NCBI GenBank assembly: GCA_019689775.1
Contig: JADGGV010000001.1
Coordinates: 1-49,545, forward strand
Source: Gemmatimonadota bacterium
Lineage (GTDB): Bacteria > Gemmatimonadota > Gemmatimonadetes > Longimicrobiales > RSA9
Length of the DNA: 49,545 bases
Direction: 5' to 3'
In this document: piece after piece, positions 17,158 to 49,326 of the stretch
Position numbering within the stretch: position 1 is the stretch's first letter
Layout of the letters: each line of letters opens with the position of its first letter
Notes under the pieces: generated by a model
Told to the model about the DNA's origin: nothing
Database searches by the model: none
Seen by the model: only the letters and a program-made list of their open reading frames with translations
Program-made: the position numbers and the translations under genes

Positions 17158-17205
17158 CCCGCGCCCCGCCGCAGCGTCCGCGGCAGAGCGTGCAGGGAGA
17201 ACGGC

Positions 17206-17646: not shown

Positions 17647-17656
17647 GGCCGGGCGC

Positions 17657-18700: not shown

Positions 18701-18797
18701 CGGAGTATCCCTGGAAACGGTGCTTCGAGCGGAGTGTCGATCGGGGCAATGTAAGCCGCGCCCGGCCAAGCGTCTAGGCGGGCACGGGACGAGAGGA

Positions 18798-19559: not shown

Positions 19560-19566
19560 ACGCGCC

Positions 19567-36031: not shown

Positions 36032-36038
36032 CCGCGCC

Positions 36039-36311: not shown

Positions 36312-36322
36312 CTTCGCCCCAG

Positions 36323-36976
36323 TCAGATGAGGTAGACAATGGTGAACAGGATGATCCAGACGAGATCCACGAAGTGCCAGTAGAGGCCCATGATCTCGAT
36401 CCCGCCGTGGTTCTCCTGCGTGTAGCGGCCGCGGAATGCCCGGATACTGGTGAAGATGAGGCACAGCACGCCGATCGTGACGTGCGCGCCGTGGAAGCCC
36501 GTCAACGTGTAGAACGTGGCGCCGTAGAGCGGGCCGCCGAGAACCGCCGTGCCGCCGTGCCGGCCGACCGCGTGGTACAGCGAGGCCATCGGGAGCATCC
36601 CCTCGCTCGCCAGCTTCGTGTATTCCACTCCCTGGATCGACAGGAACAGGATGCCCAGCGCCGTGGTGGCGAGCAGGAAGGTGCGAAGCCCCTTCTGGTC
36701 GCCGGCCTCGATCGCCGCGAACGCCTTCACCATCGAGACGCTGCTACAGATCAGGACGAACGTGTTGAACGCCGTGAGCGGCACGTTCAGCACCGTCCCC
36801 GGAGGCGGGTACGCCGTCGGGTGCGCGAAGCGCAGAATCACGTAGGAGCCGATGAGCCCCGAAAAGAACATGACCTCGGAGAGCAGGAACACCCACATCC
36901 CGAGCTTCATGTTGTAGACGCCCATGCCCGGCATTGGCCGGCGGTCGGGGTAGGTCAGCGCGGCAGCCTGGCTCAT
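36323..36976 (-). CDS. ctaE: Cytochrome c oxidase subunit III
   Basis: The motifs are GMWVFLLSEVMFFSGL, FYTLTGFHGAHVTIG and GLYWHFVDLVWI. Confidence 0.93.
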   Translation of the reverse strand: MSQAAALTYPDRRPMPGMGVYNMKLGMWVFLLSEVMFFSGLIGSYVILRFAHPTAYPPPGTVLNVPLTAFNTFVLICSSVSMVKAFAAIEAGDQKGLRTFLLATTALGILFLSIQGVEYTKLASEGMLPMASLYHAVGRHGGTAVLGGPLYGATFYTLTGFHGAHVTIGVLCLIFTSIRAFRGRYTQENHGGIEIMGLYWHFVDLVWIILFTIVYLI

Positions 36977-37005
36977 GGCCGGCCTCCTCTCTCACCGGTT
37001 GAGGT

Positions 37006-38781
37006 TCAATTGCCGGCGGGCGCCAGGGTCGGCGCCGGCGACGGCCGCTCCAACGGGGGGCGGTCCTGCGGGAGATAATCCACCGGCGAGTCGGGCGAGC
37101 TGTACTCGTACGGCCCGCGGTAGACGATCGGCGTGACCTCGAAGTTCCCATGCGGCGGCGGCGAGGGCGCGGCCCACTCGAGCGTGTTGGCGTGCCACGG
37201 GTTCGTCTCCGCCTTCCGGCCCTTGAAGAGGCTCCACAGGAAGTTGAACACGAAGATGAGCTGGGTCGCGCCAAGGAGGAACGCGTTCACCGAGACGAAC
37301 TCGTTCATCGGCTGCACCGGCTGGAGGTGCGGGTACTGCGTCGGGTCATAGAGCCGGCGCATCATCCCGGCGATGCCGAGCAGGTGCATCGGGAAGAACG
37401 TGAGGTTGAAGAAGATGAACGTCAGGAAGAAGTGAATCTTGCCTAGCGTCTCATTCATCATGCGCCCGAACATCTTCGGGAACCAGTATGTAATTGCCGC
37501 GAAGATGCCGAACAGGGATCCGCCGAAGAGCACGTAATGGATGTGCGCGACCACGAAGTAGGTGTCGTGGAGCGGGATGTCCACGGGTGTGGCGGCTACG
37601 AACATGCCGGACAGTCCGCCGATCACGAACATCGAGACGAAGGCGAGCGCGTTCAGCATCGGTACGTGGAAGCGGATGCTGCCGCCCCAGAGCGTGCCGA
37701 GCCAGTTGAAGGTCTTGATGGCGGAGGGCACCGCGATCACGAGCGTCGAGACCATGAAGTAGCCGCCCAGCACGGGGTTCATGCCGCTCATGAACATGTG
37801 GTGGCCCCAGACGATCCAGCCGAGGAACGCGATGGCGATCATCGCGCCGACCATGGCGGGGTACCCGAAGATCGGCTTGCGGGCGCCGTTGGCGAGGATC
37901 TCGGAGACGAAGCCCATGGCCGGGAGGATCAGGATGTAGACCTCCGGGTGGCCGAAGAACCAGAACATGTGCTGCCAGAGGAGCGGCTGGCCGCCGTTGG
38001 CCGGCAGGAAGAAGGTCGTCCCGATCGTCTGATCGAAGTAGAGCAGGATCAGCGCGCCGGTCAGGATCGGGATGGCAAGCAGGATGAGGATCGCGGTGAT
38101 GAAGAGCGCCCAGACGGGGAGCGGCAGGCGGAACCAGGTCATCCCGGGCGCGCGCATGTTGATGACGGTAGTGATGTAGTTCACCGCGCCCATGAGCGAG
38201 GAGAAGCCGAGGATGATGAGGCTGAGGCACCAGAGCTGCTGGCCGGTGTGCACGCCGCTGTACTCCGGCACGGCGCTGAGCGGCGCATAGGAGGTCCAGC
38301 CGGCGCCGGCGGAGCCGCCGGCGACGAGGAAGCTCGCGAGCATCATCAGCCCGGCCGGCACCGCGGTCCAGAAGGACGCCATGTTGAGGCGCGGGAAGGC
38401 CATGTCGGGCGCGCCGATCTGGAGCGGGATGAGGTAGTTCGCGAAGACGCCCACGAGCAGCGGCATGATGGCGAAGAAGATCATGAACGTGCCGTGCATC
38501 GTGACGAGGGCGTTGTAGAACTCGGGGAGCATGACGCCGCCCGGCGCCTTGGCGTCACCGAGGATGGCGCCGCCGGGGATCGGGCGTCCCGGCCAGCCGA
38601 GCTGCCAGCGCATCGTCATGGCGAGAAGGCCACCGACGAGCAGGAAGAACAGGCTCATGAAGAGGAACTGGATCCCGATGATCTTGTGATCGGTCGAGAA
38701 GATGTATTTCCGGACGAAGCTGCGGTCGTCGTGGTGCAGCGCGTGCGCCTGAGCTTCGTGCGGCAGGGCGATCGTGCTCAT
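37006..38781 (-). CDS. ctaD: Cytochrome c oxidase subunit I (A-type haem-copper oxidase)
   Basis: The motifs are TDHKIIGIQFLF, WFFGHPEVYILILP, WGHHMF and VVAHIHYVLFGG. Confidence 0.96.
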   Translation of the reverse strand: MSTIALPHEAQAHALHHDDRSFVRKYIFSTDHKIIGIQFLFMSLFFLLVGGLLAMTMRWQLGWPGRPIPGGAILGDAKAPGGVMLPEFYNALVTMHGTFMIFFAIMPLLVGVFANYLIPLQIGAPDMAFPRLNMASFWTAVPAGLMMLASFLVAGGSAGAGWTSYAPLSAVPEYSGVHTGQQLWCLSLIILGFSSLMGAVNYITTVINMRAPGMTWFRLPLPVWALFITAILILLAIPILTGALILLYFDQTIGTTFFLPANGGQPLLWQHMFWFFGHPEVYILILPAMGFVSEILANGARKPIFGYPAMVGAMIAIAFLGWIVWGHHMFMSGMNPVLGGYFMVSTLVIAVPSAIKTFNWLGTLWGGSIRFHVPMLNALAFVSMFVIGGLSGMFVAATPVDIPLHDTYFVVAHIHYVLFGGSLFGIFAAITYWFPKMFGRMMNETLGKIHFFLTFIFFNLTFFPMHLLGIAGMMRRLYDPTQYPHLQPVQPMNEFVSVNAFLLGATQLIFVFNFLWSLFKGRKAETNPWHANTLEWAAPSPPPHGNFEVTPIVYRGPYEYSSPDSPVDYLPQDRPPLERPSPAPTLAPAGN

Positions 38782-38824
38782 GTCCCTTCCTCTGTGCTCG
38801 GGAAGCGCGGCGTCGCCGCGGTGG

Positions 38825-39517
38825 TCACCGGGCCGCGTCGGCGGTCCGCACCTGCGTCTGCTGCTGGACCCAGCGCTGGAAATCCTCCTGCGACTGCACG
38901 ATCACGCGCCCCCGCATGCGGTAGTGACCGAGGCCGCAGAGCTCGGCGCAGCCGAGGACGAACTCTCCGGTCTTCGTCGCCTGGAACCAGGCGGGGATCT
39001 CCATGCCGGGGACGGCGTCCTGCTTCAGCCGGAACTGCGGGAGGAAGAACGAGTGGATGACGTCCTCGGCGCGGAGCGTGATGTGGACGGGGACGCCGAC
39101 GGGGATGTCGAGCTCGTTACGCTTCTCGAAGTCGTCGGCGGTGCCGAAGCGGCCGTCGAGCCCCGGGTAGGTGACGTGCCACTCGAACTGCTTCGCCGTG
39201 ACGTTGAGCTCGAGGCCGCCGCGCGGGAAGCGGGCCGGCTCCTTGACGGCGTACCAGAGCGGCTGGCTCGCGAGGCCGAGGAAGAAGACGATCGCGAACG
39301 TGGCCGTCGTCCAGATGATCTCGAGCCGCGTGTTGCCGTGGCTGAAGATGGCCCGGCGACCCTCACGGGCCCGGTACTTCACGATGTAGTAGACCAGCAG
39401 GACCTCGACGAGCACGAAGACGATGCCCGTGATCCAGAGGATCGTGAAGAAGAGCGAGTCGATGCGCGGGCCGAACGTCGAGACGTCCTCCGGGAGCGGC
39501 ATCCACCAGCGTTCCAT
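38825..39517 (-). CDS. ctaC: Cytochrome c oxidase subunit II (CuA site present, no fused cytochrome c domain)
   Basis: Two N-terminal TM helices are followed by DVIHSFFLPQF and the CuA motif CAELCGLGHYRM. The 230-aa protein contains no CxxCH. Confidence 0.92.
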   Translation of the reverse strand: MERWWMPLPEDVSTFGPRIDSLFFTILWITGIVFVLVEVLLVYYIVKYRAREGRRAIFSHGNTRLEIIWTTATFAIVFFLGLASQPLWYAVKEPARFPRGGLELNVTAKQFEWHVTYPGLDGRFGTADDFEKRNELDIPVGVPVHITLRAEDVIHSFFLPQFRLKQDAVPGMEIPAWFQATKTGEFVLGCAELCGLGHYRMRGRVIVQSQEDFQRWVQQQTQVRTADAAR

Positions 39518-39552
39518 GGGCCGACCTCCTCCGCGGGTTGTGGCCCGGCGCC

Positions 39553-40425
39553 TCAGCGGGCCGCGCCGTGGCTGGTGCCGGGGTGGGCGTGGGCGGCCAC
39601 GCGCGGGGCGCCGGGCGCCGGCGCGCGAGCGGTCGCGTTACCGTCGTAGGTGAAGTCCAGCGTCTTCGTCTCGTTGGGGCCCAGCGTCACCTGCTGCGTC
39701 TTGGTGCCGTACTTCTCGTGCCACGCGGTGATCGTGTAGGTGCCCGGCGGCAGGTTGCCGATCGTGTACTTGCCGCCGTTGGCGCTGGCCGCGAAGTACG
39801 GATGGTCGAAGACGGCGATGGTGGCGTGCATCCAGTTGTGGACGTTGCACTCCACGGGGATGTCCGGCTCGGCCACGTCGAACGTCCGCGCGGTCTCCAT
39901 CGTCGTCGGCTGGCTGATGTTGAACGGCCGGTTCTTCGTCGGCTTCGTCTTGATGTTGTGGAGGATGCCGTCGGCGTTCTTGATGGTGAGCTTCTGGCCG
40001 ACCTGCATGACCACGACGTGCGGCTTGTAGATGCAGCCGTCCTGGTCGATCTCGGCGGGTTGCGCCGGCGGCGCGTAGGTCTGGGCCGGCAGCCCCTCGC
40101 TCACGTAGACGACGACGTTCTCGAGCCCGCCGTCGTCGACGACGACCTCGTCCGTCGTCACGCCGCCCGGGTGCTTCTGCGCGCACACCGGCTCGCTCGA
40201 CATGTCGATGGGCGTGCCCGCCGGCGGCGTCCCGGTGAACCGGATCGTCCCGGTGAGGGTGGCCGCGTCGGCGACCGGCGCCGCCGGGGCGGCCTTCTGC
40301 TCGCCCGCCGGGGCGGCGCCGGAAGCGGCCTGCTCGCCGTCGGGTCTCGAGCCGCCGCACGCGGCCAGCGCCGCGGCCGCCACGATCACGAAAAGCTTCT
40401 CGACGCGCGCCATACGGTTCGACAT
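39553..40425 (-). CDS. Lipoprotein with a cupredoxin-like domain (putative type-1 Cu site) and a CarboxypepD_reg-like C-terminal domain
   Basis: A lipobox is present (VAAAALAAC). Candidate Cu ligands are ILHNIK and ECNVHNWM (C-x2-H-x2-M). The C-terminus reads KYTIGNLPPGTYTITAWHEKYGTKTQQVTL. GGAGG lies upstream of the ATG at 40425. The tracked ORF extends to 41115. Confidence 0.7.
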   Translation of the reverse strand: MSNRMARVEKLFVIVAAAALAACGGSRPDGEQAASGAAPAGEQKAAPAAPVADAATLTGTIRFTGTPPAGTPIDMSSEPVCAQKHPGGVTTDEVVVDDGGLENVVVYVSEGLPAQTYAPPAQPAEIDQDGCIYKPHVVVMQVGQKLTIKNADGILHNIKTKPTKNRPFNISQPTTMETARTFDVAEPDIPVECNVHNWMHATIAVFDHPYFAASANGGKYTIGNLPPGTYTITAWHEKYGTKTQQVTLGPNETKTLDFTYDGNATARAPAPGAPRVAAHAHPGTSHGAAR

Positions 40426-40451: not shown

Positions 40452-42095
40452 TCAGTCGCCCTTGCTGCCGCCCTGCTTCTCCCTCCGTTGCGCCCGGGCC
40501 ACCACCAGGATGCCGAACCCGGCGGTGAGCGCGGCGGTGGCGATCGGTGTGGTATAGACCGTCTTCGGCGTCGGCTCGTCGAGGTAGACGTGGTACCAGG
40601 CGCTGACCGCGCCCTTCGTCCCCGACTCGCCGTTCGAGCCGTCCCAGGCGAAGAACGCGATCGGGATCGCCTCGCCCTGCACCAGGGTGAGCCGGTCGCC
40701 GCCGCCCGGTGCCGCGAGCGGGCGGGTGAGCACGAGGCGCCACTGGCCGCGGTCGAAGACCGCCTGTGACCGGAGCGTGGACGGACCCGGGATCGGCGTG
40801 ATGTTCGCCAGGCCGCGCGCCGTGGCCTCGACGGCGGCGGGCGCATCGCTGCGCCAGTACCAGAGATAGACGGGGTTGCGGGCGTCGCCCATGAGGAAGT
40901 ACGGGCGCTCCATCCCCTGCGGGATCTCGCGCGGGAACTGGACGGCGAAGGCGTCGCCGAGCGCCGGCACGGCCGGGGTTGCGCCGGCGGGTGACGCGCG
41001 ATCCGCCGGCGCGGGCGGGGCGGCGTCGGAGCCGCTCGTCCCGCTCGTGGCCGCGGCCGGCGCGGCGGCGGAGTCCTCCTTCGGCCCCATGACCTCCGTC
41101 ACCCTCCGCTGCCACTCCGACCAGCGAGGGTCGGGACTCCTCGAGCGATCGTCCCAGACCAGCCGGATCGCGAGGTCACGGCCGTTGTGGAGCGCCTGGA
41201 CCCAAACGGCGTCGACGGCCGGCGAGAACCAGCGCGGCTTGATGATCACCTGCCCGACGAGCGGGATGTAGGCGCGCTCCGCGACGTTCCAGGCGGAATC
41301 GTCCGGGCTGGTCGGCAGCCGCCCCTCCACGAGGCGCGCACGGATCACCTCGGGCGGCTCCGGCGGCTCCTTCGGCGAGAGGCTCCGGACGTACTGCGCC
41401 ACGTGCCAGAGCTGCTCGTCCGTGACCACCTTCGCCGCGAGCATGTCGTTGAACGACGGCATGGGCGTGCCGTCGAGCCCGGTGCGGAGGCGACGATAGA
41501 TGTCCTCGACCGAGCCGCCCCCGCGGAACCGCCAGTTCTCCTCGAGGTTGGCCGGGCGGATCGGGAAGTGGGAATCGTCCTCCTGCGTGCTCGCCGAGGG
41601 GCCGTCGCCCCGGGCGGCGCGGCCGTGGCACTTGAAGCACTCCAGCTTCTCGTACGTCCGGCGGCCGTCTTCGATGGCGGCGGCATTCTCGGGCGGCGCC
41701 TTCGAGAAGGCGACGACGTCCGGCTTCTGCTGGAACGCGGTGGAGAACGTCTTGATGTACTGCACGAGCGCATCACGGTCGCTCTCGGAGAGCACGTCCG
41801 TCCACCCCGGCATCGCCGAGCCGGGCATGCCGTCGTCGATCACGTGACGCAGGTCGGCGTCCGTCGGCACGGAGCCGCTGCTCGTCGTGCGGACCTTGAA
41901 GAGCGCGCGGGTGAAGTCCCGCGGCCGTGGGAGCATGGTGCTCGCCGCCGGCCCGTCGCCCTTGCCGTCGGAGCCGTGGCAGCCGGCGCACCACTTCTCG
42001 TAGATCGCCTTTCCGGCCGGCGCCTGCTGCCCGGCGGCCGGCGCGGCCGCGAGCGCCACGAGCAGCGCGGCCGTCCCCGCGAGGCGCGCGCTCAC
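40452..42095 (-). CDS. Di-haem c-type cytochrome fused to an EB_dh (ethylbenzene-dehydrogenase-like, haem-b-binding) domain, with a C-terminal TM anchor
   Basis: A signal peptide is followed by the haem-c motifs CAGCH and CFKCH. The C-terminal half (AFAVQFPREIPQGMERPYFLMGDARNPVYLWYWR) resembles the EB_dh/DOMON-like family. The terminal helix is PIATAALTAGFGILVVA. The GTG start at 42095 overlaps the upstream stop (GTGA). Confidence 0.75.
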   Translation of the reverse strand: MSARLAGTAALLVALAAAPAAGQQAPAGKAIYEKWCAGCHGSDGKGDGPAASTMLPRPRDFTRALFKVRTTSSGSVPTDADLRHVIDDGMPGSAMPGWTDVLSESDRDALVQYIKTFSTAFQQKPDVVAFSKAPPENAAAIEDGRRTYEKLECFKCHGRAARGDGPSASTQEDDSHFPIRPANLEENWRFRGGGSVEDIYRRLRTGLDGTPMPSFNDMLAAKVVTDEQLWHVAQYVRSLSPKEPPEPPEVIRARLVEGRLPTSPDDSAWNVAERAYIPLVGQVIIKPRWFSPAVDAVWVQALHNGRDLAIRLVWDDRSRSPDPRWSEWQRRVTEVMGPKEDSAAAPAAATSGTSGSDAAPPAPADRASPAGATPAVPALGDAFAVQFPREIPQGMERPYFLMGDARNPVYLWYWRSDAPAAVEATARGLANITPIPGPSTLRSQAVFDRGQWRLVLTRPLAAPGGGDRLTLVQGEAIPIAFFAWDGSNGESGTKGAVSAWYHVYLDEPTPKTVYTTPIATAALTAGFGILVVARAQRREKQGGSKGD

Positions 42096-42898
42096 CGCGC
42101 ACCTCCTTCCGCGGTGTCCCACGTCCGCGGCGTCCACCCGGTCTGGTCGTAGAGGAAGATGATGACGGCCCAGATCTCCCGCTCGGTGAGGAAGTCCTCC
42201 CAGGCGGGCATCGCGGAGTTCCATGGCGTGCCCTCCTTCGGCAGGCCCCGTCCGCCCTTGGCGATCCGCCAGAAGACGAAGCTCTCCGTGAGCTGGGGAA
42301 TCGTACCGTTGTCCGTGAAGTCGGCCGGCGGCGGGTTGAACCCGTGGGCGAAGTGCCCCTTGCCGTTGAGCTGGTCGCCGTGGCAGGCGACGCAGTTCTG
42401 GTAGTAGACGCGGCGGCCTTCCTCGACGTGGTCGCGCAGGTTCCCTTCCTTGCGCAGCGGGTTCTCGAGCCCCGCCAGCGTCATGGTCTTGCCGCGGAAC
42501 GTGATGGTGGACGGCGGCGCCGGGTGGATCGAGCGCAGGTTCGGCGGCGCCTCGACGGAGGGCCGGACCTGCCGGTAGGTGATGAACCCGGCGAGGAGCG
42601 GGACGGTCACGAGGAGCGCCAGTCGATAGAGGCGCTGGCTCGGGTCGACCAGCACACGCTGGATCGGCGCCTTGAACGCCCGCCAGCGATCCTCCGTCGC
42701 GCTGACGTAGAGCAGGACGCCGACGGCGACGGTCAGCATGTACTGGAGCAGCACCGTATGTGGGACGGGCGCGCTCTTCACGCCGAGCAGCGGCGGGATG
42801 TAGGCGATGCCGAAGCGGAACAGCAGGTACGCGACGGCCAGGATCAGCAGCGCCTGCACGAACGGATGGGAGAGTCGGCTCTTCACGACGTCCCTCAC
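42092..42898 (-). CDS. Membrane-anchored mono-haem c-type cytochrome (three N-terminal TM helices)
   Basis: The haem-c motif is CVACHGDQ, and AMPAW supplies a candidate distal Met. The probable GTG start at 42898 overlaps the upstream stop (GTGA). An alternative GTG lies at 42886. Confidence 0.75.
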   Translation of the reverse strand: MRDVVKSRLSHPFVQALLILAVAYLLFRFGIAYIPPLLGVKSAPVPHTVLLQYMLTVAVGVLLYVSATEDRWRAFKAPIQRVLVDPSQRLYRLALLVTVPLLAGFITYRQVRPSVEAPPNLRSIHPAPPSTITFRGKTMTLAGLENPLRKEGNLRDHVEEGRRVYYQNCVACHGDQLNGKGHFAHGFNPPPADFTDNGTIPQLTESFVFWRIAKGGRGLPKEGTPWNSAMPAWEDFLTEREIWAVIIFLYDQTGWTPRTWDTAEGGAR

Positions 42899-43683
42899 TT
42901 TCGGGAGGCGAGATAGCGGACGAGCGCCTCGAGCTGCGCGGCGCTGAGCCGCTCCCCGAAGTCCTTCGGCATGATCCCGGCGACCTTCTCGTAGCCCTTC
43001 GCGGTGTCGGCGTTCGGGTCGAGGATCGACCGGCGGATGTAGTCGGCGGTCCTCGTGGCGCCGATGTGGTCGAGCGGCGGCGCGATCGTCGTCCCCTCGC
43101 TGCCGAGGTGGTGGCAGGTGAGGCAGGTGTTCTCGCGGAGGAGCGCGACCGGGTCGGTCGTCGCGCTGCGGGCCGGCGCGGCCGGGGCCACGCCCTGCGC
43201 CGGCGCCGGCGCGGCGGCCTTCACGTCCGCGGCCGAGACCGTGACCTCCCCGCCCTGGCTCTCGAGGAAGGCGACGAGGGCCCAAATCTGCGCCGGCGAG
43301 AGCGTGCGGCTCATGTCGGGCATGATCGGCTGATAGCCCGGGACGACGTACGCGGTCGGCTTGACCAGCGACTCGTGCAAGTAGTCCTTGCACGTCATCC
43401 CCGGCTTCCGCGTGCCGCAGCGGGCGCCGATCGTGCCCTGGCCGTGCTCATCGGTGAGGAGGTTCGGCGCGCGCGTGCCCAGCCCGTGGCACGCGGTGCA
43501 GCCGCCCGCGCCGTTGAACAGCTCCTCGCCGGCGGAGACGAGCTGCTCCGGGGTGACGTCGCCCGAGAGGTTCATCTCCCGGGGGACCTCGGACTCCACC
43601 TGGGGGATGGCGTTGCAGACGACGGTGTAGAGCCCGATCGTGCCGAGCACGACGGCGGCGATCCGGAGATTCGTCGCCCCCAT
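42895..43683 (-). CDS. Membrane-anchored di-haem c-type cytochrome
   Basis: The N-terminal TM helix is LRIAAVVLGTIGLYTVV. The haem-c motifs are CTACHGLG and CLTCHHLG, each followed by a Met-containing segment (PIMPDM and AGIMPKDF). Confidence 0.8.
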   Translation of the reverse strand: MGATNLRIAAVVLGTIGLYTVVCNAIPQVESEVPREMNLSGDVTPEQLVSAGEELFNGAGGCTACHGLGTRAPNLLTDEHGQGTIGARCGTRKPGMTCKDYLHESLVKPTAYVVPGYQPIMPDMSRTLSPAQIWALVAFLESQGGEVTVSAADVKAAAPAPAQGVAPAAPARSATTDPVALLRENTCLTCHHLGSEGTTIAPPLDHIGATRTADYIRRSILDPNADTAKGYEKVAGIMPKDFGERLSAAQLEALVRYLASRK

Positions 43684-43731: not shown

Positions 43732-45540
43732 TCAGTCTGCGCCGCCGGCGATGGCGAGCTCCCGCTCCGGCGCCCGCTCGGCGCCCGCCGCCGCGGGCGG
43801 GGCGTACGTGGACTTCTCGACGAGCCCGCCGAGCCAGAAGACGATGGCGATGAGCGCCAGGAAGATGAGCACGCAGACGCTGATCATCTTCGATGCGTAG
43901 CCGAGGGCCGGCGTGGCGGCCCACGGACTCGTGTCGCGCATGACGTTCCAGACGTGCCAGTGCTGGCGGATGCCGCTGCGGGCGAAGCCCATGAGGCCCA
44001 TGAGCCAGGTGAACGTGACGGCCAGCACGAGGAGGGCGTACTGCGAGCGCGCGGGCATCTGGCCCCAGCGGATCGCGCCGCGCGATTCGGCGCCGCGGAG
44101 CATCAGCACGTCCAGGACGAGGACCGTGACGATCGTCACGATCACGGAGAGCACCTGGTAAACGCTGAAGCCGATGCGGACGATCGCGGTGACGAAGTAG
44201 CCGTAGACGCCGAAGAAGATCACGATGGCGGCGGAGATGGCGAACAACGCCGCCTGGACGCGGGTAGCGGCGCGCGCCCAGGAGACGCTCGGCCGCTTGT
44301 TCGCCCGCCGATAGAGCAGGTACGACAGGAAGGTGCTGAGGATCATGAGGTTGACGGCCGTGTTCTTGGCGCTCATGACCCCGAGGAACCCGAGGAGCGG
44401 ATGGTGGGAGCCGCCCATGGCGGCCTGCTCGGCGCGCGAGGCGATCATGGTGTGCGGCGTCGACCAGACGAGCACGCCGAGGACGAGGACGCCGAGGATC
44501 CAGCGCGTGTAGGGGGTGAAGCGCTCGGCGCCGGGGATCCGCGCCATGCCGACCCAGAGATAGTAGTTGCCCGCAAGGAACAGCACGCCGATGAGGAAGG
44601 CCTGGATGATCCAGAGCCAGCTCATGAAGCCGCCCATCATCGTGATGCCCATCCCCTGGTCGTACTGATAGATCTCCCGCCCGAGCCAGTAGCCGGCGAA
44701 GGGGAGGATGAGCAGGCTGCTGATCGCGATGAAGTTCCCGACGTACCCCATCCAGTCGTAGTGGGCGCGCTCCTCGTCGGTCCGCGCCGCCAGGAAGCGG
44801 TAGGCGGCGTACGCGCCGACGATCGAGCCGCCGAACACGACGTTGGCGATCAGGCGGTGAATGTTGATCGGCATCCAGGTCGCGTTGGCCATCGCGCTCC
44901 AGAGGCGGATCGTCTCCGGCGCGGTGTCGGTCGAGACCTGGGGCGGCGGGCTCATCATGTAGCTGAGCCAACTGTCGGCGATGAACATGACGGCGGTGCC
45001 CCAGAGGTTCAGGAGCACGCCGAGCCCGAGGTGGATCTTCTTGCGGATGCCGTCCTTCAGGGATTCCCAGCCGTAGTAGTACAGGTAGAGCGTGAACGAC
45101 TCGAAGAAGAACAACCCTACGTAGACCCACATGGAGACGTGGAATATCGTGCTCATGTAGGTCCAGAACTTCGGGTAGAGCGTACTCAGGAAGAAGACGA
45201 GTATCGCCCCCCAGATGGCCGTGGCGCTGTAGGCGATGAGGAGGAGTCGGGTAAACTCCTTCGCCAGCTTGTCGTAGCGCTTGTCGGTGCCGAAGATGCC
45301 GATCGCCTCGACGGTGACCGCGAAGAGGGGGACGCCGAGCACGAAGGCGGCGAACATCAGGTGCACCTCGGCCGCGATCCAGATCGCGCCGCGCCCGCCG
45401 ACGAGCGGGAAGTTGCCGTAGTCGCGCGCGGCGGCCGCCTGTTGGGCGAACGCCGGGACCGCCACCGCACCCAGCATCAGGAGGACGAGGCCGCCGAAAC
45501 CGGCCAGCCGAGGGAACGAGACCCGCGACTCAGGCGTCAT
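43732..45540 (-). CDS. Cytochrome bd ubiquinol oxidase subunit I (CydA)-like membrane protein, divergent, with no partner CydB
   Basis: 602 aa and polytopic. By-eye matches to CydA blocks are AAEVHLMFAAFVLG (TM1 His), GLFFFESFTLYLYYYGW, KKIHLGLG...FIADSWLSYMMSPP and NIHRLIANVVFGGSIVGAYAAYRFL. There is no long Q-loop. Extra C-terminal helices are present. Confidence 0.7.
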   Translation of the reverse strand: MTPESRVSFPRLAGFGGLVLLMLGAVAVPAFAQQAAAARDYGNFPLVGGRGAIWIAAEVHLMFAAFVLGVPLFAVTVEAIGIFGTDKRYDKLAKEFTRLLLIAYSATAIWGAILVFFLSTLYPKFWTYMSTIFHVSMWVYVGLFFFESFTLYLYYYGWESLKDGIRKKIHLGLGVLLNLWGTAVMFIADSWLSYMMSPPPQVSTDTAPETIRLWSAMANATWMPINIHRLIANVVFGGSIVGAYAAYRFLAARTDEERAHYDWMGYVGNFIAISSLLILPFAGYWLGREIYQYDQGMGITMMGGFMSWLWIIQAFLIGVLFLAGNYYLWVGMARIPGAERFTPYTRWILGVLVLGVLVWSTPHTMIASRAEQAAMGGSHHPLLGFLGVMSAKNTAVNLMILSTFLSYLLYRRANKRPSVSWARAATRVQAALFAISAAIVIFFGVYGYFVTAIVRIGFSVYQVLSVIVTIVTVLVLDVLMLRGAESRGAIRWGQMPARSQYALLVLAVTFTWLMGLMGFARSGIRQHWHVWNVMRDTSPWAATPALGYASKMISVCVLIFLALIAIVFWLGGLVEKSTYAPPAAAGAERAPERELAIAGGAD

Positions 45541-46849
45541 GGCGGAGGAAGAAGGGGGTGCGTTTCGAGAAGTCGACGGGGAGCGCCCGCCGCACCTCGT
45601 CGAGGAGCTCGGGCGTGACCTCGGCGCGGCCGTGCTCGCGGGCGAAGCGCTCGACGCGAGCGACGACGACGGCGCGAACGAAGCTCGGGATCCGGTCGAT
45701 GCGCCGGCGCGCCTCGCGGGTCCAGGCGAGCTCGTGGCGGGCGGCGGCGCCGTAGGTCACGGGACGGCGCGGCTCGATCGGCGGCAGCATGCCGGAGGGC
45801 TCGTAGGCGCAGGCGCCGTCGGCGGCGAGCACGTCGCCGGTTTCGGCGTACGCACGGGCGCGGCAGCCGCCGCAGACGTGCCGGTACTCGCACGCGCCGC
45901 AGCGCCCGCCGAGGCGGCCGGCCCGCAGCTCGGCGAGGAGGGGCGAGGCGCGCCAGACAGTGGCGAAGTCGTCTTGCCGGAGATCCCCGGCCACGAGTGG
46001 CAGGTACGGGCAGGGCGTGAGCTTCCCCTCCGGGGTGATCCGGCAGTACTGCACGCCGCAGGGGCAGCGCGTCGCGTAGTTGAGGAGCGGCGAGTCAGGG
46101 TCGTCCTCGAGCGCGATGCGCATGATCTGCGGGTGGCACTTCGAGCGGACCATCATGCGTCCGCGGTACTCGCGCTCGAGCCGGACGAGCCGCCGGAGGA
46201 CGGCCTCGTTCTCGGCGGGCTCGAGGCCGCGCATGGCACCGCCTCGTCCGGTGGCGACGAGGAAGTAGACGTTGAAGGCGACGGCGCCGCGGGCGGCCGC
46301 CCACTCCGCGAGGGCTTCAAGCTCGTCGCAGTTCCCGCGGGTCAGGGTGGTCTGGACGATGAAGTCGAGGTCGGCGGTGCGGAGGCGCTCAACCGCCGCC
46401 AGGGTGTCCGCCAGCGCGCCCGCGCCATGGCGGAACCGGTCGTGGTAGCGCGGCCGGAGCGAGTCGATGCTTACGGCGACGCCCTGGACGCCGGCGCCCT
46501 GGAGCGAACGGATCCGCTCGGCGCTGAGCAGCGTGCCGTTCGTGCCGACGACCACGGTCGCGCCCCGGGCGGCGGCGTGGGCGGCGATCTCCTCGAGGTC
46601 CGCACGGAGCAGCGGCTCGCCGCCGCTCAGGATGAACAGAGGCGCCGGATTCACCCCGAGGATCTCGTCCGTGATGCGCCGGCACTCGGCCGTCGTGAGG
46701 TCGGACCCGGTCGCGTGCCAGGCGCCCGCGGCGATGTAGCAGTGCGAGCACGCCAGGTTGCACCGCCGGGTCAGGTTCCAGGCGACGACGTGTGGGACGG
46801 CGGCGTCCGCACGCGCGTCCATAGGGGGCGCCTCGAGCGAGCCCGCCAT
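45530..46849 (-). CDS. Radical SAM/SPASM protein of the AhbC/AhbD/NirJ type, fused to a C-terminal PCP_red-like domain
   Basis: The N-terminal cluster motif is VVAWNLTRRCNLACSHCY (CxxxCxxC). The SPASM-like Cys cluster is CPCGVQYCRITPEGKLTPCPY...CGACEYRHVCGGCRARAY. The C-terminus reads LAWTREARRRIDRIPSFVRAVVVARVERFAREHG. The start could be 46849, 46822 or 46888. Its 3' end overlaps the CydA-like ATG by 11 nt. Confidence 0.78.
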   Translation of the reverse strand: MAGSLEAPPMDARADAAVPHVVAWNLTRRCNLACSHCYIAAGAWHATGSDLTTAECRRITDEILGVNPAPLFILSGGEPLLRADLEEIAAHAAARGATVVVGTNGTLLSAERIRSLQGAGVQGVAVSIDSLRPRYHDRFRHGAGALADTLAAVERLRTADLDFIVQTTLTRGNCDELEALAEWAAARGAVAFNVYFLVATGRGGAMRGLEPAENEAVLRRLVRLEREYRGRMMVRSKCHPQIMRIALEDDPDSPLLNYATRCPCGVQYCRITPEGKLTPCPYLPLVAGDLRQDDFATVWRASPLLAELRAGRLGGRCGACEYRHVCGGCRARAYAETGDVLAADGACAYEPSGMLPPIEPRRPVTYGAAARHELAWTREARRRIDRIPSFVRAVVVARVERFAREHGRAEVTPELLDEVRRALPVDFSKRTPFFLRHDA

Positions 46850-46892
46850 GACCACATCCCGCCGGCTTCCGCCCGGGACGCCGCGCATCGCC

Positions 46893-48920
46893 TCAGGCCC
46901 CGCGAGAGTCGGCCAGGGACTCGATCGCGCGCTTCGCCTCCTGCGGCGTCACCCCCTTGAAGTCGACCGGACACTTCTCCATCGACGCCTCGATGTCGCG
47001 GATCGGGCAGCGCGTGACGCCGGACGAGCGGGCCTCGTCGATGAACCGGCGCATCTCGGGAGAGAGCGCCTCGACGCCCTCCGCCTCCGCCTTGAGTTGC
47101 TTGGCCTGAAGCTCCTTGAACATCACGAGCATGGTGTCGAGGTCGAACTCGTCGGCCTCGATCATCGCCTGGCGGTTTTCGTCCATGACCCGGGTGGTCA
47201 CGCGCCAGATCCCGTGCTCGCGGGCGAAGCGCTCGACGGTGTTGCGGGCGAGCGGCCGGGCGATCAGCGGGACGAGCGAGAGGCGCTCGAACGCCTCGGC
47301 CGTCCACACGACGGGGTCCCGGGCGGTCCGCGGCCGCAGCGAGACGTGCCCGGTGTACGGGCAGCGTGCCTCCACCATCGGCACGTCCGGCTCCGGGTCG
47401 GCGTCGTGCCCCTCGACGACGGTCCGGCGCATCGCCTCCTCGGCCTTCAGCTCTGCCAGCGCCAGCTCCTCGGCGGTGCCGATCCCCATGATGAGCTGCA
47501 TGTGCGTGGGGAGGAGCTTCCGGATCGCCTCGTCGAGGCGCTCGTTGGTGACAATCGGCAGCACCGGATCGCGGCCGTCCGGCGATGGTCCGCCGGCGCC
47601 GCCGTCGGCGGGAGCGCCGTAATGCTCGAGGACGAACTCCTCGACGGCCTTCCGGGCGATCCCGAGCGCGAACGGCGGGACGCGGAGGATGCGCACCTCC
47701 GCCTCCGGCGCCCACTCCAGCCCGGTCTGCCCGTCCTCCTCGATCCAGGGGATATCCTCCGGGTGCACCGCCTCCGTCCCGACCAGGAGCACGCTGGACG
47801 GCGCCAGGCGGACCAGGTTCTCGGCCTGCGAGCCGAGGTCGGTCCCCGCGATCCGGTGCGAGCCGTGGCGCGCGATGACGAGGAGCGACGGGCGAATCTC
47901 CTGCGCCCATTGGAGGATCACCTGGAACGGCTTGCCGATCAGGATCTGCGTGTGCAGCTCGACGTCCGGGAACTCCGACGCCATCACCTGCGCCCGCTTG
48001 ATGTTCGCCTGCGTCAGCTTGAGGAGTCCCTTGTCGATGATGTTGTTGTGAAGCTCCTCCTGCTCCTCGAACTTGAAGACCTTCGAGGCCTGGACCGACA
48101 GCACGTCCTTGATGTTGTGGAAGACGGCGTGGTGGTACTCGACGTCGAACGCGCTGCACACGTAGAGCACGGCCTCGAACTCCCGAGCCAGCTCCAGCGC
48201 GACGCGCAGCGCCTTGTACGCGTACGCGGAGCCGTCCACGCAGACCATGAACCGGCCGCCCCGCAGCGGGGTGGCGTCGCGCACGATCAGGACGTCCTTC
48301 TCCACGCCGCGGACCACCCGCGCGACCACGCCGCCGAGCTGGCTGTAGGCCTGCCGCCCGATCCCGTGCGCCCCGATGGCGACGAGGTCGTAGCGCCGGC
48401 CCGTCGAGCCGGCCAGCTTGTCCTCCGCCGCCTCGTCCTCCGCCTCGATGCGCCCGTTCGCGCCCAGGCGAACGTCGCCGCGGACGCGCGCGCCACCGTC
48501 GTACTTGAACGCGATGTTCGGATCGAAGCCGATCAGGCTCGGGAGCCGCCCCTCCCCGCGGTTCGCCTCCCGGATGATCTCCTCGTAGTTGATCCCCTCG
48601 AGGAGCTGGCGGGTCAGCGGGACTCCCGCCTCCCGACAACGCACGTCGACCTGGTCCAGGAAGCTGTCCGAGATGAGCTGGAGCCCCTTCTCGATCAGCT
48701 TGTCGTGGACCTTGCGTTGCCGCTTGATCTCCTCAGGGGTCTGGAACCGTGCGGGGAGGCCGGTCTCGAGCTGGCGGAAGCGGATGTCGTGCAGGCGGGC
48801 GGCGTAGACGTGGGTGCCTGTGATGCGCCCCCGTGAGCGGCGTGCCAGCTCGATGGCGCGATCCACGGCCCAGTCCGAGCACGCCGAGTTGTCAACGGGG
48901 ACCAGGATTTCCCGATACAT
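46893..48920 (-). CDS. Tandem universal stress protein (USP) domains fused to two PCP_red-like domains
   Basis: USP domain 1 is MYREILVPVDNSACSDWAVDRAIELA...DLVAIGAHG...VLIV. USP domain 2 is FMVCVDGSAYAYKALRVALELA...LLVIARHGSH...VLLV. The two PCP_red-like blocks are LEWAPEAEVRILRVPPFALGIARKAVEEFVLEHYG and VVWTAEAFERLSLVPLIARPLARNTVERFAREHG. GAGG lies upstream of the ATG at 48920. The tracked ORF extends to 49184 through an Arg-rich, non-protein-like stretch. Confidence 0.75.
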   Translation of the reverse strand: MYREILVPVDNSACSDWAVDRAIELARRSRGRITGTHVYAARLHDIRFRQLETGLPARFQTPEEIKRQRKVHDKLIEKGLQLISDSFLDQVDVRCREAGVPLTRQLLEGINYEEIIREANRGEGRLPSLIGFDPNIAFKYDGGARVRGDVRLGANGRIEAEDEAAEDKLAGSTGRRYDLVAIGAHGIGRQAYSQLGGVVARVVRGVEKDVLIVRDATPLRGGRFMVCVDGSAYAYKALRVALELAREFEAVLYVCSAFDVEYHHAVFHNIKDVLSVQASKVFKFEEQEELHNNIIDKGLLKLTQANIKRAQVMASEFPDVELHTQILIGKPFQVILQWAQEIRPSLLVIARHGSHRIAGTDLGSQAENLVRLAPSSVLLVGTEAVHPEDIPWIEEDGQTGLEWAPEAEVRILRVPPFALGIARKAVEEFVLEHYGAPADGGAGGPSPDGRDPVLPIVTNERLDEAIRKLLPTHMQLIMGIGTAEELALAELKAEEAMRRTVVEGHDADPEPDVPMVEARCPYTGHVSLRPRTARDPVVWTAEAFERLSLVPLIARPLARNTVERFAREHGIWRVTTRVMDENRQAMIEADEFDLDTMLVMFKELQAKQLKAEAEGVEALSPEMRRFIDEARSSGVTRCPIRDIEASMEKCPVDFKGVTPQEAKRAIESLADSRGA

Positions 48921-49297: not shown

Positions 49298-49326
49298 ATA
49301 ATAAGGAGCGGCGCGAGGGCTGTCAA
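49298..49326 (-). promoter_or_regulatory. Near-consensus sigma70-type promoter upstream of the respiratory locus
   Basis: The minus strand reads TTGACA-N17-TATTAT. Such a match is very improbable by chance in roughly 70% GC DNA. It lies about 370 nt upstream of the USP-gene ATG. Confidence 0.6.

Follow-up and report, generated by a model that had tools for sequence, protein, structure and literature searches.

The O2-independent haem synthase AhbD is found in bacteria of the coproporphyrin-dependent (CPD) pathway that lack the other AHB enzymes, where it constitutes an alternative to ChdC (PMC13564367). AhbD carries a full SPASM motif (CX20-33CX17CX36-37CX2CX5CX2CX17-35C), and its auxiliary cluster donates an electron to an acceptor outside the enzyme (PMC10452713). 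With 36% identity and one extra domain, the AhbD homologue Gms (GMGT synthase) acts on lipids (PMC11214058). CydA-only, cytochrome bd-like proteins of the OR-N type are encoded in Nitrospirota and other phyla (Murali et al., bioRxiv 10.1101/2021.01.16.426971). In a 49,545-nucleotide stretch of the genome of a soil Gemmatimonadota bacterium (the window), genes for a radical SAM protein (rSAM_PCP) and a universal stress protein (USP_PCP), both fused to PCP_red domains, lead an operon that codes for respiratory oxidases. The former protein is an uncharacterised relative of AhbD that forms its own clade.

Organisation of the locus

The rSAM_PCP and USP_PCP genes lie on the minus strand and are tightly coupled in one operon with a CydA-like gene (Table 1). 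The stop of rSAM_PCP (45530) and the start of the CydA-like gene (45540) share the 11-nt overlap described in an earlier, sequence-only reading of this DNA. The promoter-like site precedes the USP start by ~370 nt; from the public gene calls of locus L082 it falls just behind the stop codon of the preceding ABC-2 gene. The CydA-like protein resembles cytochrome bd subunit I in its N-terminal half only, with its His and FFFE Glu ligand positions aligning with those of Geobacillus CydA (5doq), and no CydB is encoded alongside it. One of the c-type cytochrome genes (40452..42095) codes for a fusion with an EB_dh haem-b domain. The gene order further downstream (35114..40425) is syntenic in 20+ loci, while no recognisable CtaA is encoded beside CtaB within the window. 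The CydA-like protein, the three c-type cytochromes with EB_dh, the aa3 oxidase, CtaB and a ChdC/HemQ-like gene together bear out a haem-related context.

Table 1. Positions of the genes, domains and motifs in and around the operon headed by USP_PCP and rSAM_PCP
Feature	Position	Strand	Basis
Promoter-like site TTGACA-17-TATTAT	49298..49326	-	11/12 consensus matches; 1 site vs 0.2 expected
USP_PCP gene, 675 aa: tandem USP, two PCP_red, C-terminal region	46893..48920	-	Pfam; public protein
Tandem USP domains, residues ~1-215 and ~221-381	47778..48920	-	Pfam Usp stretches, alignment
PCP_red copy a of USP_PCP, residues ~399-470	47511..47726	-	Pfam; motif LEWAPEAEVRILRVPPFALGIARKAVEEFVLEHYG; aligned with other copies
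First (R/K)-Cys-Pro motif RCPYTGH (Cys520)	47346..47366	-	C520-P521 invariant in 29 Gemmatimonadota sequences
PCP_red copy b of USP_PCP, residues 535-590	47151..47318	-	Pfam; motif VVWTAEAFERLSLVPLIARPLARNTVERFAREHG
Cys-Pro motifs RCPIRD (Cys638) and KCPVDF (Cys650)	46959..47012	-	C638-P639, C650-P651 invariant
rSAM_PCP gene, AhbD/NirJ2-like radical SAM-SPASM with C-terminal PCP_red	45530..46888	-	Pfam, NCBIfam, tree, AF2
Radical SAM cluster motif C43-x3-C47-x2-C50	46739..46762	-	Invariant in homologue alignment
Full SPASM region, eight Cys, two auxiliary 4Fe-4S sites	45809..46138	-	All Cys invariant in homologue alignment
PCP_red domain of rSAM_PCP, residues 389-433	45590..45724	-	Pfam, PDB sequence matches, AF2
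Conserved C-terminal tail LPVDFSKRTPFF of rSAM_PCP	45551..45586	-	Homologue alignment
CydA-like membrane protein	43732..45540	-	Pfam Cyt_bd_oxida_I 77 bits, profile positions 8-241 of 418
Three c-type cytochrome genes	42895..43683, 42092..42886, 40452..42095	-	Pfam, NCBIfam, gene calls L082/L083
CarboxypepD_reg protein	39553..40425	-	Pfam
COX2	38825..39517	-	Pfam
COX1	37006..38781	-	Pfam
COX3	36323..36976	-	Pfam
Haem O synthase CtaB	35114..36031	-	TIGR01473 272.7 bits, cut-off 210

Domain architecture and family placement of rSAM_PCP

The Radical_SAM, SPASM, PCP_red and tandem Usp domains proposed from the sequence alone all score above their Pfam gathering scores. In rSAM_PCP these comprise Radical_SAM (92.5 bits, residues 38-197), SPASM (28.1 bits, residues 275-333) and PCP_red (48.2 bits, gathering score 32.5), and the previously quoted motifs WNLTRRCNLACSHCY and LAWTREARRRIDRIPSFVRAVVVARVERFAREHG occur at residues 37-51 and 387-420, respectively. 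The open reading frame codes for 452 aa, while the public gene call of 439 aa begins at Met14 (position 46849), which is probably the true start. The eight cysteines of the SPASM region are spaced C251-x23-C275-x17-C293-x36-C330-x2-C333-x5-C339-x2-C342-x17-C360, which fits the full motif of AhbD (PMC10452713). An AF2 model (pLDDT 82.4, pTM 0.84) places the PCP_red domain confidently (pLDDT ~90-96). The homologues number more than 7000, of which the best 120 all combine the radical SAM, SPASM and PCP_red domains, so that this architecture is no one-off.

The best NCBIfam matches of rSAM_PCP are NirJ2 (290 bits) and AhbD (278 bits), well ahead of NirJ (184), AhbC (157), mycofactocin maturase (125) and PqqE (108), in agreement with the AhbD/NirJ-type affiliation suggested previously, although the former two scores do not come near the 500 bits set as equivalog cut-off for these haem b synthase models (TIGR04545 and TIGR04055). 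Among the proteins of the examined loci, true AhbD and NirJ2 exceed the cut-offs of their own models and reach ~360 bits on each other's, while the PCP_red-bearing proteins, at 264-329 bits, are only slightly more distant. In a neighbour-joining tree the latter proteins are monophyletic (94% bootstrap) and fall inside the AhbD/NirJ2-like assemblage, separate from the AhbC/NirJ1 paralogues, and rSAM_PCP shares 36-44% identity with archaeal, deltaproteobacterial and Firmicute AhbD/NirJ2 members. The columns invariant in AhbD/NirJ2 are retained to 83% in the rSAM_PCP clade, as compared to 72% in the AhbC paralogues. At other such sites the clade shows fixed changes (His206->Asn, Phe208->Tyr, Asn179->Gln and Thr250->Lys), while Gln177 is variable, and these substitutions would be compatible with another substrate or binding mode.

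A substrate other than a tetrapyrrole, be it a membrane lipid or, as for the anSME-type enzymes, a protein or peptide residue, appears improbable. The lipid-modifying Gms provides a precedent (PMC11214058), rSAM_PCP is followed immediately by, or lies close to, FGE-sulfatase-domain genes in loci of Nitrospiraceae, Nitrospinota and Vicinamibacteraceae, and, there being no AhbD structure, the Foldseek neighbours are peptide or protein maturases (PqqE, SkfB, SuiB and anSME). However, only ~30 residues precede the cluster motif and there is no N-terminal lipid domain of the COG4001 type, the AhbD/NirJ2 scores are two- to three-fold those of the RiPP maturase and PqqE models, and anSME is not among the PDB sequence matches. 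Furthermore, neither a conserved precursor-peptide gene nor a sulfatase was seen, and the neighbouring genes are consistently haem-related. The FGE-sulfatase domain is the aerobic counterpart of anSME.

USP_PCP and the PCP_red domains

USP_PCP is 100% identical to a public protein (P0121) titled only 'universal stress protein'. The N-terminus MYREILVPVDNS is common to all homologues and fixes the start at 48920, and 120 of 120 homologues among the matches listed carry both Usp and PCP_red. Pfam identifies two Usp domains (116 bits), the first of which is split by a Gemmatimonadota-specific insert of ~50 aa and contains G183-x2-G186-x9-G196-G197, near the ATP-binding motif G-2x-G-9x-G(S/T); USP_PCP probably binds nucleotides. 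PCP_red matches in two stretches (53.2 bits), and both motifs quoted in the sequence-only reading are present (residues 401-435 and 537-570). Copy a is broken by a variable Gly/Pro-rich insert, while the best Pfam stretch of copy b spans residues 627-670 of a 763-aa open reading frame, equivalent to residues 539-582 of the 675-aa protein. The Cys520 site is elsewhere occupied by a four-Cys rubredoxin-like knuckle, in Poribacteria and Vicinamibacteraceae, and the homologues of the latter family keep RCPF. RCPIRD and KCPVDF resemble the Hap1-type haem-regulatory motif (K/R-C-P-V/I-D-H) and are putative haem-binding sites. A PVDF core is common to KCPVDFKGVTP of this protein and the tail LPVDFSKRTPFF of rSAM_PCP.

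The repeated motif exceeds the gathering score of PCP_red (PF08369), whose three copies in the window, one in rSAM_PCP and two in USP_PCP, were correctly recognised from the sequence. The rSAM_PCP copy matches the C-termini of ChlB/BchB (2xdq_B and 8vqi_B) and the stand-alone PCP_red NMR structures 2l09 and 2kru. When the copies are aligned, no Cys or His is conserved, and the conserved positions are restricted to Trp, Pro and Ala/Arg.

A conserved module extends beyond the window

rSAM_PCP belongs to a conserved cytoplasmic module whose other members, the USP protein, a Fe-S carrier ATPase (Mrp/NBP35), a PCP_red protein with a Cys-knuckle and a small ferredoxin, are more widely conserved partners of it than the CydA-like protein. 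The genes for Mrp/NBP35, the Cys-knuckle-PCP_red protein and the ferredoxin are located just past the end of the window, beside the ChdC/HemQ-like gene, and had for this reason been absent from the earlier reading. USP and Mrp genes are present in 22 of 22 and 17 of 17 assessable Gemmatimonadota loci, and in 11 of 15 and 11 of 14 Poribacteria loci, respectively, and USP, Mrp and Cys-knuckle-PCP_red are also kept in Vicinamibacteraceae and Multivorans. In Poribacteria-type contigs COX3/COX4/SCO1 adjoin USP_PCP. The ChdC/HemQ-like gene, of the Chlor_dismutase family, occurs a few kb upstream in the same cluster, matches only HemQ and haem-binding protein in NCBIfam (134, below the cut-off of 235) and shows translational coupling with the ferredoxin gene both here and in a 90%-identical relative; it is also found in locus L017. 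A HmuY-like gene (54 bits) is a further recurrent haem-related neighbour. The literature contains no paper on this USP/Mrp/PCP_red/rSAM module, which is conserved, unstudied and probably supplies or handles haem.

PCP_red is otherwise familiar from a chlorophyll enzyme, the dark-operative protochlorophyllide reductase (DPOR), in which it lies over the pigment pocket, not at the docking face of BchL. The domain is here found on every soluble module member except Mrp and the ferredoxin, including fusions with CxxC...CxxC knuckles or rubredoxin-like motifs. PCP_red may here be a generic three-helix docking module and not a tetrapyrrole-handling domain, with the accessory set providing Fe-S clusters and electrons to keep an O2-sensitive radical SAM enzyme active in aerobes and the ATPases controlling when clusters are loaded or low-potential electrons passed on, in a loose parallel to BchL and BchNB. 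This distribution, the missing Cys and His, the CxxC bridging-cluster motif of Mrp, whose gene always adjoins that of the Cys-knuckle-PCP_red protein and often overlaps it by 4 nt, and the external electron acceptor required by AhbD (PMC10452713) speak for such a role, which is nevertheless somewhat doubtful given the placement of the domain in DPOR and a literature without any experimental datum on non-DPOR PCP_red proteins, the NMR structures 2L09 and 2KRU aside. It concerns the accessory proteins and would fit either substrate hypothesis.

Association with the CydA-like gene

Synteny of rSAM_PCP and the CydA-like gene is observed in every assessable Gemmatimonadota locus and in one Thermodesulfobacteriota locus, where the proteins are only 42% and 41% identical. 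A CydA-like neighbour is found in none of the 14 assessable Poribacteria loci, nor in those of Acidobacteriota, Nitrospiraceae, Nitrospinota and Vicinamibacteraceae, and in the Acidobacteriota-type loci clade members with 62-70% identity occur without a CydA-like or oxidase gene within reach. The association of the two genes holds in the first two groups and fails in the other five, so that the enzyme is not dedicated to the bd-like protein.

The radical SAM enzyme BciD provides a precedent for methyl-to-formyl chemistry on a tetrapyrrole. It is conceivable, but rather unlikely, that rSAM_PCP is a neofunctionalised AhbD relative which converts haem to a special cofactor of the adjacent aa3 oxidase or CydA-like protein, through side-chain oxidation, hydroxylation, formylation or another decarboxylation, with the PCP_red proteins passing on the tetrapyrrole. 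The overlap of rSAM_PCP with the closely packed CydA-like gene, their synteny even in the divergent Thermodesulfobacteriota locus, the clade-specific changes such as His206->Asn, an extra domain homologous to that of a tetrapyrrole enzyme and the missing CtaA point in this direction, and the ChdC-like gene may render a second haem b enzyme needless. Against it stand the groups without a CydA-like neighbour, the retention of most AhbD-invariant residues and the whole cluster motif, and the absence of any sequence feature indicating a particular alternative reaction. The dedicated, modified haem proposed earlier finds no sign in its favour over haem b, the product of the closest characterised enzymes.

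Predicted function of rSAM_PCP

With domain content, clade membership, AhbD cluster motifs and synteny established, rSAM_PCP is tentatively proposed, at a little less than an even chance, to be an O2- and peroxide-independent coprohaem decarboxylase (AhbD-type haem b synthase) that is paired with ChdC and serves the adjacent oxidases. The family scores, the well-supported clade, the eight-Cys spacing, the retained columns, the ChdC-like gene, the module, the haem-related neighbours, the confidently modelled PCP_red domain and the occurrence of AhbD in CPD bacteria (PMC13564367) are consistent with this. The sub-cut-off family scores, the fixed substitutions, the Gms precedent and the presence of an O2-independent enzyme in mostly aerobic phyla argue against it. 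The CPD pathway is deduced solely from the ChdC-like gene, itself below its cut-off, and no other haem-pathway genes (cpfC, cgoX and hemE) were seen in the individual loci examined.

As a coprohaem decarboxylase, rSAM_PCP would act on coprohaem under anaerobic or micro-oxic conditions, complementing the aerobic ChdC/HemQ-like enzyme, and its haem b product would be supplied to the CydA-like protein, the b- and c-type cytochromes, the aa3 oxidase and CtaB encoded downstream. PCP_red may form a tetrapyrrole lid, as the homologous BchB C-terminus does in DPOR, and/or a common docking module bringing ferredoxin and rubredoxin-like partners to rSAM_PCP; AhbD requires electrons from a donor to cleave SAM and, through its auxiliary clusters, an external acceptor. 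In these mostly aerobic lineages, Mrp/NBP35 may load or repair the three 4Fe-4S clusters, while USP_PCP, with its probable nucleotide binding and three invariant Cys-Pro motifs, may gate or chaperone the process in response to the energy or haem state.

Comparison with known systems

The CydA-like protein is a candidate relative of the OR-N type, with which it shares the presence of only the N-terminal haem-binding and O2-site CydA helices, the lack of CydB and the c-type cytochromes alongside; radical SAM, USP and PCP_red neighbours are not mentioned in the OR-N paper (10.1101/2021.01.16.426971). The three PCP_red copies belong to the same Pfam family as the C-terminal domain of BchB/ChlB, but are fused to radical SAM, USP or Cys-knuckle modules, and the window genes include neither a nitrogenase-like BchN/BchB body nor BchL or a chlorophyll pathway. 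The pairing of ChdC with AhbD has been described for Gram-positive bacteria with a plain AhbD, whereas in this Gemmatimonadota bacterium the ChdC-like and AhbD-like genes coexist in one cluster, the latter is fused to PCP_red and joined by accessory proteins, and both fall below the equivalog cut-offs. The CX3CX2C motif and eight-Cys SPASM spacing are the same as in the AhbD/NirJ2 haem b synthases, which include the M. barkeri and D. vulgaris enzymes, while rSAM_PCP differs in its C-terminal PCP_red domain and conserved tail, its fixed substitutions and separate clade, and in having, in largely aerobic phyla, an Mrp/USP/PCP_red accessory set instead of AhbA/B/C neighbours. As in Gms, a single domain, presumably the determinant of the substrate, has been added to an AhbD-like core. 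In Gms this domain is N-terminal (COG4001) and forms a hydrophobic lipid tunnel, whereas that of rSAM_PCP is C-terminal and of a tetrapyrrole-enzyme type, in a genomic context of haem and respiration.

Gene content of the minus-strand string

Two genes coding for PCP_red-containing proteins head a minus-strand gene string at the 3' end of the window, which has a G+C content of 72%: USP_PCP, a tandem-USP protein with two PCP_red copies, and rSAM_PCP, an AhbD/NirJ2-like radical SAM-SPASM enzyme with a C-terminal PCP_red domain. The genes that follow, beginning with that for a bd-subunit-I-like (CydA-like) membrane protein, are listed in the table. All of the domains which the sequence-only reading had named in the two proteins are confirmed by Pfam, including the assignment of the repeated motif to PCP_red; the motifs it quoted are found where they had been placed, and the 11-nt overlap between rSAM_PCP and the start of the CydA-like gene is real. 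In the public gene calls rSAM_PCP starts at Met14 (position 46849), and an identical copy of USP_PCP, from a public MAG, carries the bare annotation 'universal stress protein'. A near-consensus sigma-70-like promoter (TTGACA-17-TATTAT) and a leader of ~370 nt precede the USP start. Rfam gives no family hit above gathering score in the window; in the leader the sole weak match, on the wrong strand, is ftsZ-DE, which scores 23 bits where 72 are required, and the fold energy of the leader is not unusual (z = -1.26), so that there is no evidence for a riboswitch.

Coordinates of features in the window and in related loci (L numbers)
Feature	Position	Strand	Pfam matches
Window: promoter and leader	48921-49326	-	
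Window: USP_PCP, 675 aa	46893..48920	-	Usp (PF00582) 116 bits; PCP_red 53.2 bits in two stretches (gathering 32.5)
Window: USP_PCP tail motif	46959-46976	-	
Window: rSAM_PCP, 452-aa ORF	45530..46888	-	Radical_SAM 92.5, SPASM 28.1, PCP_red 48.2 bits (gathering 32.5)
Window: rSAM_PCP residue 206	~46271-46273		
Window: rSAM_PCP tail motif	45551-45586	-	
Window: CydA-like membrane protein	43732..45540	-	
Window: three c-type cytochrome genes, last one fused to EB_dh haem-b domain	40452..43683	-	
Window, further along: CarboxypepD_reg protein; COX2, COX1, COX3; haem O synthase CtaB		-	
Window: 323-aa membrane protein	33926-34897	-	
L082 (longer contig of the same organism): upstream string	1-4402		
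L088 (90%-identical relative): upstream string	5125-9581		
L002: HmuY-family gene	4820-5506		
L045 (Thermodesulfobacteriota): locus	6012-20483		
L032: FGE-sulfatase-domain gene	7713-8747		
L043: FGE-sulfatase-domain gene	11779-13058		
L044: FGE-sulfatase-domain gene	11599-12255		

Placement of rSAM_PCP among haem-modifying enzymes

The radical SAM CX3CX2C motif of rSAM_PCP (C43-x3-C47-x2-C50) is invariant among 24 sequences, and its full SPASM reads C251-x23-C275-x17-C293-x36-C330-x2-C333-x5-C339-x2-C342-x17-C360. This agrees exactly with the eight-Cys spacing reported for the full SPASM of AhbD, CX20-33CX17CX36-37CX2CX5CX2CX17-35C, which has two auxiliary clusters (Fix et al., PMC10452713). 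The top NCBIfam matches are the haem b synthase models NirJ2 (TIGR04055, 290 bits) and AhbD (TIGR04545, 278 bits), both below the equivalog cut-off of 500 bits; TIGR04053, NirJ, AhbC and peptide maturases rank lower, and all stay under their equivalog cut-offs. Reference proteins that lack the PCP_red tail, from loci L079, L080 and L075, reach 554, 560 and 618 bits, pass the AhbD or NirJ2 cut-off and cross-score at ~360 bits on the sister model; PCP_red-bearing proteins score 264-329 bits on both. A role as NirJ in haem d1 synthesis was rejected on score (184 bits against the TIGR04051 equivalog cut-off of 515) and on context, nirS, nirF and nirDLGH being absent from the annotated part of the window (27573-49545) and from the related loci examined.

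More than 7000 rSAM and about 2000 USP homologues were detected. For comparison, relatives were gathered from a scan of one genome per species. Relatives with the PCP_red tail are 60-77% identical in Gemmatimonadota, Thermoanaerobaculia and Acidobacteriota, and 42-46% identical in Poribacteria, Nitrospiraceae, Nitrospinota, Vicinamibacteraceae, 'Multivorans' and one Thermodesulfobacteriota MAG, while those without it (36-44%) occur in methanogens, Bathyarchaeia, sulfate reducers, Dehalococcoidia and Firmicutes. In a bootstrapped NJ tree, with AhbC/NirJ1 paralogues from the same loci as outgroup, all PCP_red-bearing enzymes form one clade (94% bootstrap) within the AhbD/NirJ2-like assemblage and apart from AhbC/NirJ1, the deeper nodes having 25-51% support. 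The PCP_red clade retains 83%, and the AhbC paralogues 72%, of the 74 columns that are >=90% conserved among AhbD/NirJ2-like sequences. Similarity to RiPP maturases and anSME is weaker. The call of the enzyme as AhbD/NirJ-like was thus right as judged by scores and tree, a designation that stops short of strict AhbD membership. The Acidobacteriota and Thermoanaerobaculia enzymes of L001 and L013 nest within the Gemmatimonadota clade at 67-70% identity, suggesting that the enzyme has moved laterally without its neighbours.

The PCP_red domain and the USP protein

Across the PCP_red copies, conservation is limited to Trp, Pro and a small number of Ala/Arg positions, with no Cys or His; the domain is thus predicted to be a helical module that binds or acts as a lid, rather than a metal site. 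In the dark-operative protochlorophyllide reductase (DPOR), the BchB C-terminus lids the tetrapyrrole. A PCP_red profile search yielded no new architectures, returning only proteins of <100 aa; the three checked for context lie beside or overlap truncated USP_PCP or Mrp gene calls and are probably gene fragments. An AlphaFold2 model of rSAM_PCP from a 24-sequence alignment gives a confident single body (pLDDT 82.4, pTM 0.84), with the PCP_red helices at ~90+. Foldseek with this model retrieves generic SPASM enzymes only, there being no AhbD structure in the PDB. The model of USP_PCP is poor (pLDDT 63.8).

Set against the ATP-binding UspFG-type nucleotide motif, G-2x-G-9x-G(S/T), the first USP domain carries G183-x2-G186-x9-G196-G197, and the second carries G353-x9-G363-S364, the first Gly being missing. 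In the non-Gemmatimonadota phyla a rubredoxin-like four-Cys knuckle lies between the PCP_red copies of the USP protein. In Gemmatimonadota this site is cut down to one Cys-Pro, which together with two at the C-terminus makes three invariant (R/K)-C-P motifs (C520, C638 and C650). With their basic-Cys-Pro-hydrophobic pattern, these peptides resemble haem-regulatory motifs and are putative haem-binding sites. The C-terminal tails of rSAM_PCP (...LPVDFSKRTPFF) and USP_PCP (...KCPVDFKGVTP) are related and both contain PVDF, suggesting that the two proteins have a binding partner or site in common; the rSAM enzymes of Poribacteria and Nitrospiraceae end in RFDKTGIPSFRP instead.

Conserved partner genes

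The module is cut off by the 3' end of the window, beyond which its upstream string is carried by L082 and L088 in the order Chlor_dismutase-family gene, ferredoxin, Mrp/NBP35 ATPase, 147-aa protein, ABC-2 transporter pair and USP gene. The Chlor_dismutase-family (ChdC/HemQ-like) gene overlaps the small ferredoxin gene, and the 147-aa protein combines an N-terminal CxxC...CxxC knuckle with a C-terminal PCP_red domain (57.5 bits, gathering 32.5). Genes for Mrp and the Cys-knuckle-PCP_red protein, mostly with ferredoxin, stand beside both window genes in all 17 assessable Gemmatimonadota loci and recur in 11 of the 14 Poribacteria loci, as well as in Vicinamibacteraceae and 'Multivorans'. Beside Mrp, Gemmatimonadota also have recurrent genes for an HmuY-family protein and for a His-containing membrane protein of 123 aa that matches no family, and in Poribacteria the gene for a CopD-like 152-aa membrane protein is located immediately upstream of the rSAM gene. 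Loci with such neighbours are L002, L003, L009, L017, L020 and L047.

Association with the CydA-like gene and terminal oxidases

The order USP_PCP, rSAM_PCP, CydA-like, cytochrome c, cytochrome c, (EB_dh), COX2/1/3 is kept in all Gemmatimonadota loci with enough flank, and in HR33 the genes from Mrp through the cytochromes abut or overlap. The Thermodesulfobacteriota locus L045 retains the string from USP to the second cytochrome c. One flank of L045 contains a FixO-type cytochrome, COX1 (haem-copper oxidase) and a DUF364/DUF4213 'metal chelation' protein, the other, of NXR/NAR type, a NarJ-like chaperone, a TAT molybdopterin oxidoreductase, an Fe-S subunit and an EB_dh subunit. The tie to the CydA-like gene seen by the sequence-only reading holds in Gemmatimonadota and in L045 and fails elsewhere: an Acidobacteriota locus encodes a 70%-identical rSAM_PCP alone among unrelated genes, and a CydA-like neighbour is found in none of the 14 assessable Poribacteria loci nor in the Nitrospiraceae, Nitrospinota, Vicinamibacteraceae and 'Multivorans' loci. 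Hence rSAM_PCP cannot be regarded as specific for the CydA-like protein, and the idea of a dedicated enzyme is not borne out.

Canonical cytochrome bd oxidase comprises a full-length CydA with Q-loop and CydB, whereas the window protein matches positions 8-241 of 418 of the Pfam profile only, and no CydB gene is present with it. In the O2-site helices of bd, the window protein retains the positions of the His and of the FFFE Glu; the C-terminal half of CydA is missing. The gene is co-transcribed with three c-type cytochromes and the EB_dh haem-b domain directly upstream of the aa3 oxidase, and the set could equally be an electron-entry module for that oxidase, rather than an oxidase itself.

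Haem context and proposed function

In NCBIfam, the Chlor_dismutase-family protein hits no models other than those for the haem synthase HemQ/ChdC and one for a haem-binding protein, at 134-138 bits (cut-off 235), and its gene recurs in L017 and L088. In several loci the module is preceded by an HmuY-family gene (haem-binding, hemophore-like, 54 bits), and in Poribacteria-type contigs the USP_PCP gene comes after COX3, COX4 and SCO1. The CtaB of the window is a bona fide haem O synthase, and no haem A synthase (CtaA) is recognisable in the cluster. Two genes downstream of CtaB, the window encodes a 323-aa protein for which ~8 TM helices are predicted. It contains an internal VVHYVAFAG / ALHFVAFAI repeat, has no Pfam or NCBIfam match and might, given the lack of a CtaA, be a divergent CtaA, or else an unrelated membrane protein.

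The most economical reading, quite possibly correct and adopted here tentatively, is that rSAM_PCP decarboxylates coprohaem without O2, in the manner of AhbD, that it has accessory proteins of its own, and that it is encoded beside haem-consuming complexes. AhbD is present in bacteria with the coproporphyrin-dependent (CPD) pathway that lack the rest of the sirohaem-dependent (AHB) pathway, as an O2-independent alternative to ChdC (PMC13564367), and its auxiliary clusters require an external electron acceptor (PMC10452713). Mrp would be the Fe-S cluster carrier of the enzyme, and the ferredoxin and knuckle proteins would be its redox partners. The USP protein would sense nucleotide, possibly also haem, and PCP_red would either lid the tetrapyrrole, as in BchB, or dock partners.

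Four switches are fixed in the PCP_red clade: His206 to Asn, Phe208 to Tyr, Asn179 to Gln and Thr250 to Lys. Residue 206 is His in 95% of AhbD/NirJ2-like sequences and Asn in all PCP_red-bearing enzymes (HxF to NxY). An electron-donating ligand close to the substrate metal has been proposed for AhbD (PMC11306076), for which residue 206 is at most a candidate. Such active-site changes, the ChdC-like gene already there and the tight coupling in Gemmatimonadota favour the synthesis of a dedicated modified haem by rSAM_PCP, which we consider rather unlikely. Beyond coprohaem decarboxylation and modified haem lies a non-tetrapyrrole role, for which Gms offers a precedent, an AhbD homologue in which one extra domain changes the substrate class altogether (PMC11214058). 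The GMGT synthase Gms has an N-terminal COG4001 lipid-binding domain of ~100 aa, whereas rSAM_PCP has merely ~30 poorly conserved residues before the rSAM motif; with no lipid-tunnel domain, no precursor peptide and the weaker similarity to anSME and RiPP maturases, this role appears improbable. FGE-sulfatase-domain genes lie just downstream of rSAM_PCP in Nitrospiraceae, Nitrospinota and Vicinamibacteraceae loci (L032, L043 and L044). FGE and the radical SAM anSME are an aerobic/anaerobic pair, and an anSME-like role, considered for these recurrent neighbours, was rejected on sequence grounds.

On a broader and more speculative view, which we think unlikely to be right, the Mrp/NBP35 ATPase, ferredoxin, rubredoxin-like Cys-knuckle-PCP_red proteins, USP-PCP_red with its Cys-Pro motifs and the AhbD-derived rSAM-PCP_red may constitute a hitherto unrecognised ATP-gated, O2-independent machine that makes haem and delivers it to terminal oxidases. 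The PCP_red domains would be portable carriers of, or lids for, tetrapyrroles and pass coprohaem or haem between partners, and the rSAM with altered active-site residues might yield a non-standard haem for CydA-only (OR-N-like) and/or haem-copper oxidases. The literature searched contained nothing linking bd-like oxidases, AhbD-like enzymes, USP and PCP_red, nor anything on PF08369 outside DPOR, and a preprint on the bd superfamily does not mention radical SAM, USP or PCP_red neighbours (bioRxiv 10.1101/2021.01.16.426971).

The AhbD-derived clade is large and strongly conserved, with thousands of sequences and ~70% identity across phyla (Gemmatimonadota, Acidobacteriota, Poribacteria, Nitrospirota and Nitrospinota). 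Its enzymes invariably carry the chlorophyll-enzyme domain as a fusion and typically have an Fe-S carrier, redox partners and a USP protein of their own encoded alongside. Haem b synthesis is regarded as essentially solved; the known distribution of AhbD covers archaea, sulfate reducers and certain Gram-positive bacteria. If rSAM_PCP is a coprohaem decarboxylase, the anaerobic branch of the CPD pathway extends to abundant soil and sponge phyla and PCP_red gains its first function outside DPOR. Otherwise, the enzyme would represent a new chemistry, of tetrapyrrole tailoring or another kind, that is linked to the poorly understood oxidases of bd-like type. In both cases existing AhbD assays offer a direct test. 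The loci differ from AHB pathway operons in that no PCP_red-type locus contains the second, AhbC-like rSAM gene present in 12 archaeal, deltaproteobacterial and Firmicute loci, and rSAM_PCP, with the conserved module of accessory genes around it, is an uncharacterised form of AhbD-like enzyme rather than a category of its own.
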